NCBI GenBank assembly: GCA_963799485.1
Contig: CAWCXJ010000007.1
Location: 504,401 to 568,400, forward strand
Length of the DNA: 64,000 bases
Direction of reading: 5' to 3'
Source: an uncultured Trueperaceae bacterium
GTDB taxonomy: Bacteria > Deinococcota > Deinococci > Deinococcales > Trueperaceae
The notes under the pieces are model-generated. The model searched no databases and was not told the origin of the DNA. It saw only the letters and a list, made by a program, of their open reading frames with translations. The translations under genes were made by a program, and so were the position numbers. Positions 57,258 to 58,757 of the stretch are shown piece after piece. Numbering within the stretch: the first letter of the stretch is position 1; each line of letters opens with the position of its first letter.

Positions 57258-57448
57258 ATTCTACTCAAGAAGTCTTAGAGAGGTGGTTTTTGGTTTATGC
57301 GGCTAATCGGGCCGTCTCTAGCGTAAGCCCCGGCAGCCCGACAGTTAGCCAAAACGACCGTTTTTTGCTAGGGTCTTAATGCTGAAAACAGAGGCGTGCT
57401 AGACAGGTGTTTCAAGAGGAAAAATGAGCCCCCTTGTATGTTGAGGAT

Positions 57449-57582
57449 GGGACACGGCACGGCAGAGCGTCGCCCCTTAGGTTCTAAAGACCGTAAAAAA
57501 GCTAGTCTCGTCGTGCTGTTGTCTTCAGCCTAAGCCCGAACAGTTACCCGAGCAATAAGCTCGCATCTGCAAGGTTGGGCTA
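57449..57582 (+). ncRNA. Predicted bridge RNA (target-binding and donor-binding loops)
   Basis: Two stem/internal-loop/hairpin modules; guides GTCGCCCCT and AAAAAAG (target), ACAGTTAC and TGCAAG (donor); boundaries approximate. Confidence 0.8.
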
Positions 57583-57607
57583 CGCTGGAGCGTCTCACGG
57601 AGGTGAC

Positions 57608-58552
57608 ATGCTTAACGAAGTGTTGGTGGCTGGCGTAGACGTCGCCAAGTACCGTCTCGATATCGCGATCATACCAAGCGGTGAACGCCTTTCACACGCC
57701 AACACGCCAGACGGTATCGGCGAGTTGGTCAAGCTGCTGAGGCATCTACAGCCGAGCCGCATCGTTCTTGAGGCCACCGGCGGTTTGGAGCAGCCCTTGG
57801 TCATCGCCCTGGTTGAGGCAGCGCTACCTGTGGTGGTGGTCAACCCAAGACAGGTGCGTGATTTTGCTCGGGCCCTGGGCAAGCTGGCGAAAACCGACCG
57901 GATCGATGCTGTGGTACTCGCTGAGTTTGCAATCAAAGTCGCACCTGCTTTACGTAAGTTGCCTGATAGCGCCACACGTGCCTTGGACGCCCTGGTGACG
58001 CGGCGTAGTCAGCTGGTGCAGATGATAACCGCCGAGCGCAACCGCCTACACGCCTGCAACGACGACAGTGTGAAAGCCGATATTGATGAGCACCTGAAGT
58101 TCCTGGAAAAGCGTCGCCAGCACCTGGACGAGGCGTTGCTTGAAGCTGTCAAGGCTGATCCCTCGACCAAGGCACGTGACCATTTACTGCAGAGCGTGCC
58201 AGGCGTGGGTCCGCAGGTATCCCTGGTGTTGCTGGCGAACTTGCCGGAACTGGGTAGCCTCACGAGAAAGCAGATCGCTGCGTTGGTGGGCGTCGCACCT
58301 TTGAATCGCGATAGCGGTCTCTGGCGGGGCCGAAGGAGTGTGTGGGGCGGTCGGCGTGACGTGCGCACCGCCCTTTACCTGGCAGCGCTGTCGGCCTCAC
58401 GTTACAACCCCCTGATCCGCCCACTCTATGAGCGCTTGCTGCTCAAGGGCAAGCCCAAAAAGGTAGCGTTGGTTGCCTGTGCCAGAAAGCTCCTATGTAT
58501 CTTGAACGCGATGATCCGCTCCGGAAGCTCCTGGCGTCCAGCTGCTACTTGA
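57608..58552 (+). CDS. IS110 recombinase (DEDD RuvC-like plus Tnp domain)
   Basis: GVDVAK, LEATGG, KTDRIDA, SVPGVG, PLNRDSG (catalytic Ser), [17 protein letters not shown] before ATG 57608. Confidence 0.95.
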
Positions 58553-58757
58553 CAAATGACACAGTTGCTTTTTTGATAGGGGGGCTCGAGCCTGGATATG
58601 ACGCGATCATATGCAAAATCAGATAACGGCAACTTAGGCAGGGCTGGGGAAGTGGTGAAAAATCACGAACGCTGGTGCGTCTTTCTCACGCGCTCACCGC
58701 AACCATCAAGCAAGCTAGCTGCAAAAGCACCGTAACCGCCGTGGACTACTCTGTCTC

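Follow-up and report, generated by a model that had tools for sequence, protein, structure and literature searches.

A compact IS110-group insertion sequence with a predicted IS621-type bridge RNA in an uncultured Trueperaceae bacterium

Introduction

Does the left end of an IS110-group insertion sequence carried by an uncultured Trueperaceae bacterium encode a bridge RNA of the kind known from IS621, and do the guides of that RNA agree with the sites in which the element is found? The element lies in a stretch of 64,000 nucleotides (assembly GCA_963799485.1, contig CAWCXJ010000007.1, positions 504,401 to 568,400 of the forward strand), here called the window, to which all positions refer unless another source is named. 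A first-pass annotation, made from the letters alone, had described a complete bridge-recombination system at this place, with a compact RNA whose guides match its own donor and target. We hold with high confidence that the region is an intact, recently active IS110-group element and that its left end encodes an IS621-kind bridge RNA. The evidence comes from the anatomy of the element, its homology to known recombinases, its copy number and flanks, covariation within its family, and the concordance of guides with flanking DNA.

The element and its copies

The genome (3,655,195 bases in 15 contigs, 59% G+C) holds four copies of the element that are 100% identical over 1137 nt. Positions 57430-58574 are common to all four, and the flanks diverge beyond, a comparison that yields the same length of 1135 bp as the first-pass annotation had given; the ends themselves are ambiguous by 3 nt, since CTT is common to both junctions. 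The flanks of the first copy read ATGAGCCCC-CT...CT-TTTTTGATA, those of the second GTCGTCCCC-CT...CT-TTTTTGGTA, those of the third GGGTAGCCC-CT...CT-TTTTTAGTG, and those of the fourth TTTTGACCC-CT...CT-TTTTTATGC, giving the overall pattern xxxxCCC-CT...CT-TTTTT(G/A). Four identical copies sharing one stretch thus have the flank motif CCC-CT-TTTTT in common. CT stands at both junctions of every copy, its exact position being ambiguous within CTT, and donor and target share this dinucleotide core without a long target duplication or terminal inverted repeats. The left end (57435-57607) is 173 nt long and non-coding; the right end extends only 15 nt past the stop codon.

Zero differences over 1137 nt among the four copies indicate very recent transposition and, judged by these copies, the element is intact and recently active. 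The genome also carries a 33-bp left-end remnant and, on contig C6, a left-end relic (L005) of 75-76% identity whose gene is interrupted. Eleven CCCCTTTTTT sites in the genome are unoccupied (4.1 are expected from composition); with four of four insertions in the motif and 11 such sites free genome-wide, the placement of the copies is not due to chance. The features of the element are listed in Table 1.

Table 1. Features of the IS110-group element in the window, in order of position.
Feature	Position	Strand	Basis or remark
Left target flank of the window copy, GAGCCCC	57426..57432	+	Flank comparison; only the last CCC is common to the four copies
IS110-group insertion sequence, 1135 bp	57433..58567 (equally 57435-58569)	+	Stretch shared by the copies, 57430-58574; flanks divergent outside
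Core CT, left copy	57433..57434	+	CT core in 80/81 family rows; AT in L010
Right donor TGTAT, at the start of the element	57435..57439	+	Left ends of relatives read T[GA]T[AC][TA]
-10 hexamer TATGTT of a predicted promoter formed only at the circle junction	57437..57442	+	Reconstructed junction TTGACA-17 nt-TATGTT
Predicted bridge RNA, ~134 nt	57449..57582	+	Both ends predicted; covariance-model match 57430-57586
Target-binding loop module, outer stem 57451-57467/57507-57523, bulged A57464	57451..57523	+	Fold and family covariation
Left target guide, (G)UCGCCC-CU-U	57469..57478	+	Sense of left target, core, and first right-target base
Small hairpin in target-binding loop, GGUU-CUAAA-GACC	57480..57492	+	Conserved helix 2; compensatory change in 3/4 pairs
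Right target guide AAAAAAG	57495..57501	+	Complementary to CT+TTTTT, 7/7 at 4/4 copies
Handshake position of the target loop, C	57502..57502	+	Complementary to last left-donor base, G58567
Donor-binding loop module, stem 57533-57539/57575-57581, hairpin 57549-57563	57533..57581	+	Fold; helices 3 and 4
Left donor guide ACAGUUAC	57540..57547	+	7/8 identical to right-end ACAGTTG+C; family consensus ACAGTTGC
Right donor guide region CAUCUGCAAG	57564..57573	+	Near-invariant in family; CAAG (57570-57573) pairs with CTTG of core and right donor
Handshake position of the donor loop, G	57574..57574	+	Complementary to last left-target base, C57432
Recombinase gene, 314 aa, GGAGG at 57599-57603	57608..58552	+	Pfam, IS621 and ISCro4 structures, catalytic residues
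-35 hexamer TTGACA in right end, overlapping the stop codon (predicted)	58549..58554	+	Joined ends
Left donor ACAGTTG, at the end of the element	58561..58567	+	Family right ends read ACAGTTG-CT
Core CT (right copy) and right target TTTTT	58568..58574	+	Same in four copies

The recombinase

The 314-aa protein had been annotated as a DEDD/Ser recombinase, and comparison with known proteins bears this out. It contains the Pfam domains DEDD_Tnp_IS110 (PF01548, 4.4e-26) and Transposase_20 (PF02371, 7.2e-18), both above their curated cut-offs, and its best matches among solved structures are the transposases of IS621 (PDB 8wt6, E 2.6e-41, query residues 3-307) and ISCro4 (9t56, E 1.4e-40, residues 4-307). 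Homology to the solved IS621 structure is already decisive for its identity. Residues D11, E55, D97, D100, and S236-G237 align opposite the catalytic residues of IS621, whose composite active site is given in the available text of PMC11208158 as D11, E60, D102, D105, S241, and G242. A longer, TTG-started reading frame finds no support in the relatives, as their matches begin at residue 1-9.

A conserved RNA structure in the left end

Every coordinate and string that the first-pass annotation had built on was found in the DNA: the junctions GAGCCCC-CT-TGTAT (57426-57439) and ACAGTTG-CT-TTTTT (58561-58574); the guide strings GTCGCCCCT (57469-57477), AAAAAAG (57495-57501), ACAGTTAC (57540-57547), and TGCAAG (57568-57573); and, as quoted, the hairpin CGAGC-AATAA-GCTCG (57549-57563) and the stems 57451-57467/57507-57523 and 57533-57539/57575-57581. 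A single-sequence fold of the leader recovers both of the described stem-loops, at -58.6 kcal/mol.

Relatives were collected by scanning one genome per species, which gave 606 candidate stretches, 531 of them confirmed; the best 80 were kept and correspond to 79 loci. The kept relatives have 51-60% protein identity and come mostly from metagenome-assembled genomes of Dehalococcoidia, Nitrospira, Gemmatimonadales, and Methylomirabilota/Rokubacteria, with Deinococcus pimensis in addition, and their upstream regions follow one common layout. Forty-two left ends (the window, the C6 relic, and 40 non-redundant loci chosen out of the 79) were aligned with MAFFT, and the RNAalifold consensus comprises 27 pairs in five helices, with 95.9% of the cells paired. 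Compensatory changes occur in 20 of the 27 pairs, against 10.2±1.7 in shuffled alignments, and double-change cells number 136, against 28.6±6.9 in shuffles and 10-32 when the partners were slid by 1-3 columns; none of the measures was equalled in 500 shuffles. The consensus structure was derived from the alignment on which it is tested, a circumstance somewhat in its favour, yet the margin is a wide one. In the outer helix of the target loop, 10 of 13 pairs show compensatory changes across the family, and the window itself has a compensated swap inside the first stem, from the family's C-G to G-C (alignment columns 64/106).

A covariance model of homologous left ends had been proposed in the first-pass annotation as a check. 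The model from the 42-row alignment has the two-loop fold with strong covariation and matches 57430-57586 at 106 bits (E 1.5e-28); its search returned 91 matches in 85 sources. No Rfam family scored above threshold in the leader. The sole Rfam match, sX15 (RF02234), lies on the opposite strand (57441-57599, minus) and covers the whole model at 26.4 bits, compared with a gathering threshold of 55 (E 0.13).

Agreement between guides and flanking DNA

Guide columns were read from the model-based alignment. Left ends were placed by the conserved right-donor motif and right ends by the best match to the element's own donor guide plus core, the target guides being used in neither placement. Complete guide columns and a left end were present in 81 of the 91 matches, and 11 of these were dropped: five had two possible left ends, five scored below 8 at the right end (and one of these had an AT core as well), and the relic L005 has no right end. 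The sample thus consists of 70 loci with 54 distinct guide pairs.

Over these 54 pairs, the match fraction of the left target (core excluded, better register) is 0.678, against 0.403±0.020 when guides and flanks were re-paired at random, and the six post-core bases agree with the reverse-complemented right guide at 4.70 of 6 positions, against 1.70±0.15; no permutation out of 5000 reached either value, figures that overstate independence because the relatives are phylogenetically related, though the guides themselves differ between elements. The guide-target covariation among homologues on which the first-pass annotation had staked its reading is therefore present on both sides of the core. 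Right-target positions 1-5 match in 47-52 of the 54 elements and position 6 in 7, so that the right guide amounts to the core plus five bases.

The base immediately following the right target guide complements the final base of the left donor in 52 of 54 elements, three A-T and two T-A switches among them, and the one immediately following the right donor guide forms a canonical pair with the final base of the left target in 47 of 54, with three further G-T pairs. Such handshake guides are described for IS621 (PMC11208158). In the window, C57502 complements the donor base G58567 but not the target base C57432, and for G57574 it is the other way round, C57432 being complemented and G58567 not. 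This is the partner specificity that the handshake model requires. The anatomy drawn in the first-pass annotation stands, but these two positions were missed there, as was the junction promoter described below. Its pairing of TGCAAG with one G:T wobble is an equivalent reading of the CAAG/CTTG pairing, and discontiguous pairing has been described for IS621 (PMC11208160).

It might be argued that the leader is merely a cis-regulatory or antisense-controlled 5' untranslated region of the transposase mRNA, devoid of any guide role. It does lie directly upstream of the gene, the RNA ends are predicted ones, and the homologous region in Xanthomonas is transcribed on both strands (sX15/asX7, PMC3300014). 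An untranslated region of this sort is nevertheless extremely improbable here: the loop sequences track the element's own flanks and ends in a way that 0 of 5000 permutations reproduced, the handshake positions co-vary with the partner DNA, and the biochemistry and structures of IS621 show that the homologous RNA acts as a guide (PMC11208160, PMC11208158).

A predicted promoter at the circle junction and a short predicted RNA

Joining the right end to the left end in silico creates a sigma-70 promoter, TTGACA-17-TATGTT, and a corresponding junction promoter (TTGA[CT]N, 16-18 nt, TAnnnT) occurs in 42 of the 54 distinct relatives, 36 of those with 17-nt spacing. In the integrated state, no promoter-like site was seen upstream on the plus strand. 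IS621 likewise has a promoter that is reconstituted at the circle junction (PMC11208160).

By analogy with IS621, excision of the element as a circle would bring TTGACA of the right end to TATGTT of the left end and so form the promoter, which would drive an RNA of ~134 nt with a target-binding and a donor-binding loop. The target loop would pair with host CCC-CT-TTTTT, through its 3' guide AAAAAAG on the top strand and through its 5' guide on the bottom strand, and the donor loop would pair with ACAGTTG-CT-TGTAT, the sequence of the joined ends. Strand exchange at the CT core would then be the work of the 314-aa DEDD/Ser recombinase acting as a tetramer, each loop contributing a single handshake base (C57502 and G57574) that complements the partner DNA; such a system may be programmable.

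Transcription would begin at ~57447-57450, because a start is expected ~7 nt after the -10 hexamer. Only ~6 nt would separate this start from the outer stem of the target loop, which leaves no room for a 5' stem-loop of the IS621 type, and the window has none. The absence of the 5' accessory hairpin, asserted in the first-pass annotation, is thus real, and the compactness of the RNA that was also asserted there agrees with a predicted start near 57449. Leaders without room for a 5' hairpin make up 19 of the 81 family rows (~12 distinct elements, two of them with ambiguous left ends), with 13-24 nt between left end and stem; in the other rows that interval is 28-110 nt and often contains a stable hairpin. 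The 5' stem-loop has been called structurally conserved among IS621 orthologues, and in IS621 itself it is unseen in the cryo-electron microscopy map, while its deletion lowers binding and slightly lowers recombination (PMC11208158). Because deletion cuts recombination only slightly, the IS621 stem-loop is accessory; engineered ISCro4 RNAs also work without it (bioRxiv 10.1101/2025.05.14.653916).

How the target is chosen

The nine family left-guide columns read UCGCCCCUU in the window (57470-57478). Two registers are found among the 54 elements: register A, in which the guide corresponds to left-target positions -7 to -1 plus CT, is better in 35, and register B (-6 to -1, CT, and the first right-target base) in 17, with two ties. 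Over the four copies, the window guide scores 6, 6, 7, and 8 of 9 in register B and 6, 5, 6, and 4 in register A; the register of the first-pass annotation, which put the core at 57476-57477, is B and hence the better-scoring one. G57469, which was there taken as the first base of the guide, is invariant in 42 of 42 left ends and is probably structural. The annotation had also suggested comparing the flanks of other copies with the guides, and this comparison gives 7/7 for the right guide at all four copies and 6-8 of 9 for the left. Of the proposed target GAGCCCC-CT-TTTTT, the right side stands, but GAGCCCC occurs at one copy only; the constant part of the left target over the four copies is confined to CCC+CT(+T), and the effective target is about CCC-CT-TTTTT. 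The reading of the left target by the window element may be either short or tolerant.

Several observations weigh against the bridge-RNA reading, in addition to the common ancestry of the relatives noted above. The single-sequence fold is not significant (z -1.12, 29 of 200 shuffles as good); it is the four identical copies, the family covariation, and the guide-flank concordance, not this fold, that make the bridge RNA more than chance. The left guide fits the four sites at only 6-8 of 9 positions, and its register is one base off that of most relatives (35 A versus 17 B). At occupied sites the four distal left-guide positions match in 5 of 16 cases, and at the 11 free CCCCTTTTTT sites in 9 of 44; these are hand counts from the flanks and the numbers are too small, and they lend no support to the idea that occupied sites match the distal guide better. 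A better-matching site at ~1658 in the window is unoccupied: it is gccgCCCCTTTTTTg (~1650-1667; G000 C7:506058), which matches the left guide at 6/7 and the right guide in full and which, among the free targets of the genome, is predicted to be the best. The window site is not an independent sample, since its left flank is homologous to that of the C6 relic. No circle junction or excision joint was present in the contigs of metagenomes X1, X2, X3, and X5, a result without weight either way because contigs drop rare forms, and no empty site was readable in 30 related genomes, where the left flank aligned in its coding part alone, at 70-74% identity.

Part of this evidence would suit a different division of labour, in which recombination is RNA-guided but the target is chosen mainly by the right guide, the core, and a feature read by protein or through structure, the 5' part of the left guide lying idle. 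Only CCC+CT is constant in the left targets of the four copies and the 33-bp remnant, the distal left-guide positions are at chance level while the 6-of-7 site stays empty (again by hand counts), and for IS110 elements two 2026 preprints report, in the parts available, recombination on a half match and a dual-match logic of sequence and structure. In addition, the first site reconstructs to a 10-bp hairpin. However, a strong hairpin is present at only one of the four reconstructed sites, for which reason the notion that the target is a terminator was also dropped. In many relatives, the left guide matches 7-9 of 9 positions, so the family does use the distal ones, and four sites are too few to judge. 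We regard an idle left guide as possible, though rather unlikely.

Genomic setting and related sequences

Upstream of the insertion (55551-57257) lie a ribBA-like 403-aa ORF and a lumazine-synthase-like 158-aa ORF which, by eye from their translations, we take to be riboflavin genes; the element begins 176 nt downstream of the latter. The 137 nt to the left of the window copy (57296-57432) are homologous to DNA left of the C6 relic (G000 C6:715154-716984, minus strand), with 58 of 66 positions identical in one block, and are collinear with it up to the CCC-CT junction. On C6, a further insertion sequence, one with inverted ends, interrupts this stretch; it contains a 266-aa transposase-like ORF (L092 667-1467), and in the relic itself the recombinase gene is replaced by other transposase-like ORFs (L005 100-1500, minus strand), making contig C6 an insertion-sequence nest. 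The shared left flank is either a small repeat carrying a preferred target or an old joint duplication of flank and element; it makes the window copy a candidate founder.

Among the metagenomes, X1 has a 1147-nt contig equal to 57430-58575, and X2 contains the right flank of the fourth copy together with a further right flank beginning CT-TTTT. X5 holds a variant with 31 listed base differences whose flanks again read ...CCCC-CT and CT-TTTT; the target loop accounts for three of the differences (57477 T>C, 57479 A>G, 57497 A>G), and with C at 57477 the left guide reads in register A. These contigs are single and of low depth and provide hints only. The element was not found in the 30 related genomes, which gave one 50-nt match (E 5.8e-4), nor was a close relative present in the plasmid collection, where the best match was a Deinococcus peraridilitoris plasmid with 66.8% identity over 24% of the query.

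Could the copies be immobile fossils, their protein or RNA defective despite an intact appearance? X1, X2, X3, and X5 have no circle or empty-site contig, the left donor guide carries one mismatch, at donor position 7, which is the handshake position (A57546 versus G58567), and the left target guide is imperfect. Yet the lack of any difference among four copies speaks for very recent transposition, the ORF is complete and retains every catalytic residue, and the metagenome contigs add further insertion contexts, so we consider fossil copies highly unlikely.

The covariance model also matches the sX15 locus of the Xanthomonas plasmid pXCV183 at 62.6 bits (E 3e-18), on the strand opposite sX15: the match is at L100 1592-1750 (minus), equal to NC_007507.1 116391-116549, and sX15 is on the plus strand. 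Rfam sX15 appears to be the complement of an IS110-type bridge-RNA relic, and asX7 and the 10 reported Stenotrophomonas homologues would be the bridge-RNA strand. At some Dehalococcoidia loci (L042, L036 on both strands, and L007), a second, different IS110-type element is found inside the left end of the first. Its donor is ACGGATA-CT and its target ends in CAA-CT-GTTCGGGCT, the donor-loop region of the first element; one bridge-RNA element here targets the bridge-RNA gene of another.

Comparison with known systems

Bridge recombinases are in development as tools with which DNA can be inserted, inverted, or excised in a programmable way, and natural orthologues that have a shorter RNA and a small protein make useful starting points. 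The window element offers four natural target sites and ~54 relatives with paired guides and targets; it is, as far as its sequence goes, a well-formed, compact natural orthologue with known target sites, and its function is a predicted one. We suggest only tentatively that it belongs to a naturally occurring group of minimal bridge systems: no 5' stem-loop, a ~134-nt RNA, a 314-aa enzyme, and an element of 1135 bp, with a left guide that starts one base earlier and reaches one base past the core and with a need for ~10 target bases (CCC-CT-TTTTT). Were this so, the guide register on the bridge-RNA scaffold would be flexible in nature, and the demands on left-guide length looser than in the IS621 model. 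The biological addition is small: a distant clade, most of it uncultured, is confirmed to keep to the rules known from IS621, namely the two loops, the CT core, the handshake bases, and the junction promoter. To the specialist, the points of interest are the one-base variation of the left-guide register (35 versus 17 elements) and the repeated loss in nature of the accessory 5' hairpin.

The novelty claimed in the first-pass annotation was overrated. Bridge RNAs have been predicted in 85.7% of the IS110-group elements in ISfinder and in thousands of orthologues (PMC11208160), 72 bridge-recombinase orthologues have already been screened (bioRxiv 10.1101/2025.05.14.653916), and ~12 relatives found here likewise lack room for the hairpin. 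In the available portion of the literature on IS110 bridge RNA and Deinococcus, no native Deinococcus element was found described, which is not proof of absence.

The closest comparison is with IS621 of E. coli, which has a 177-nt bridge RNA (Durrant et al. 2024, PMC11208160; Hiraizumi et al. 2024, PMC11208158; PDB 8wt6). As far as the available text of these sources goes, the two elements share a RuvC-like DEDD domain, a coiled coil, and a Tnp domain with the catalytic Ser; a long left and a short right end; a donor-binding loop that comes after the target-binding loop; guides of which the 5' one has the sense of the top strand and the 3' one is complementary to that strand; and the CT core, the handshake bases, and the assembly of a promoter where the circle closes. 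The IS621-type architecture proposed in the first-pass annotation (recombinase, loop order, CT core, and guide places) is in this way supported comparatively throughout. The window element differs in that its RNA lacks the 5' stem-loop, with ~6 nt before the target-loop stem; its natural right guide has 7 nt as opposed to G77-G80 in IS621; there is one base fewer between stem and hairpin on the left-guide side; its target is T-rich (CCC-CT-TTTTT); and its protein has 314 rather than 326 aa. The donor bases of IS621 named in the text of PMC11208158 (dA6, dT7, dC8-dT9, dT10, dT12) fit the window donor except at positions 6-7, the full IS621 donor being given in figures only. ISCro4/IS622 (PDB 9t56) is homologous over residues 4-307 and has the same RNA architecture; it was chosen for activity in human cells, whereas the window element is known from sequence alone. 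The relatives collected here (L007-L085) share an alignable bridge RNA, conserved motifs, the donor ACAGTTG-CT-TGTAT, and a junction promoter, but each has its own target guides, and most have 28-110 nt, often with a hairpin, before the target loop.

The IS1111-group elements with the seekRNAs of Siddiquee et al. in 2024 reportedly use the same recombinase family and likewise choose their targets by RNA. Their RNA, however, lies downstream of the gene in the right end, and they have long sub-terminal inverted repeats (PMC11208160); membership of the window element in this group was rejected, its right end being 15 nt long and its RNA upstream of the gene. Rfam RF02234 (sX15), for its part, appears to model the strand opposite to the bridge RNA, asX7 being the bridge-RNA-like strand. 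By all criteria that a sequence can address, the window element is a further case of the known IS110-group bridge systems of the IS621 type; since IS110 bridge RNAs are already widely predicted, in thousands of orthologues (PMC11208160), it adds a case and not a new kind.

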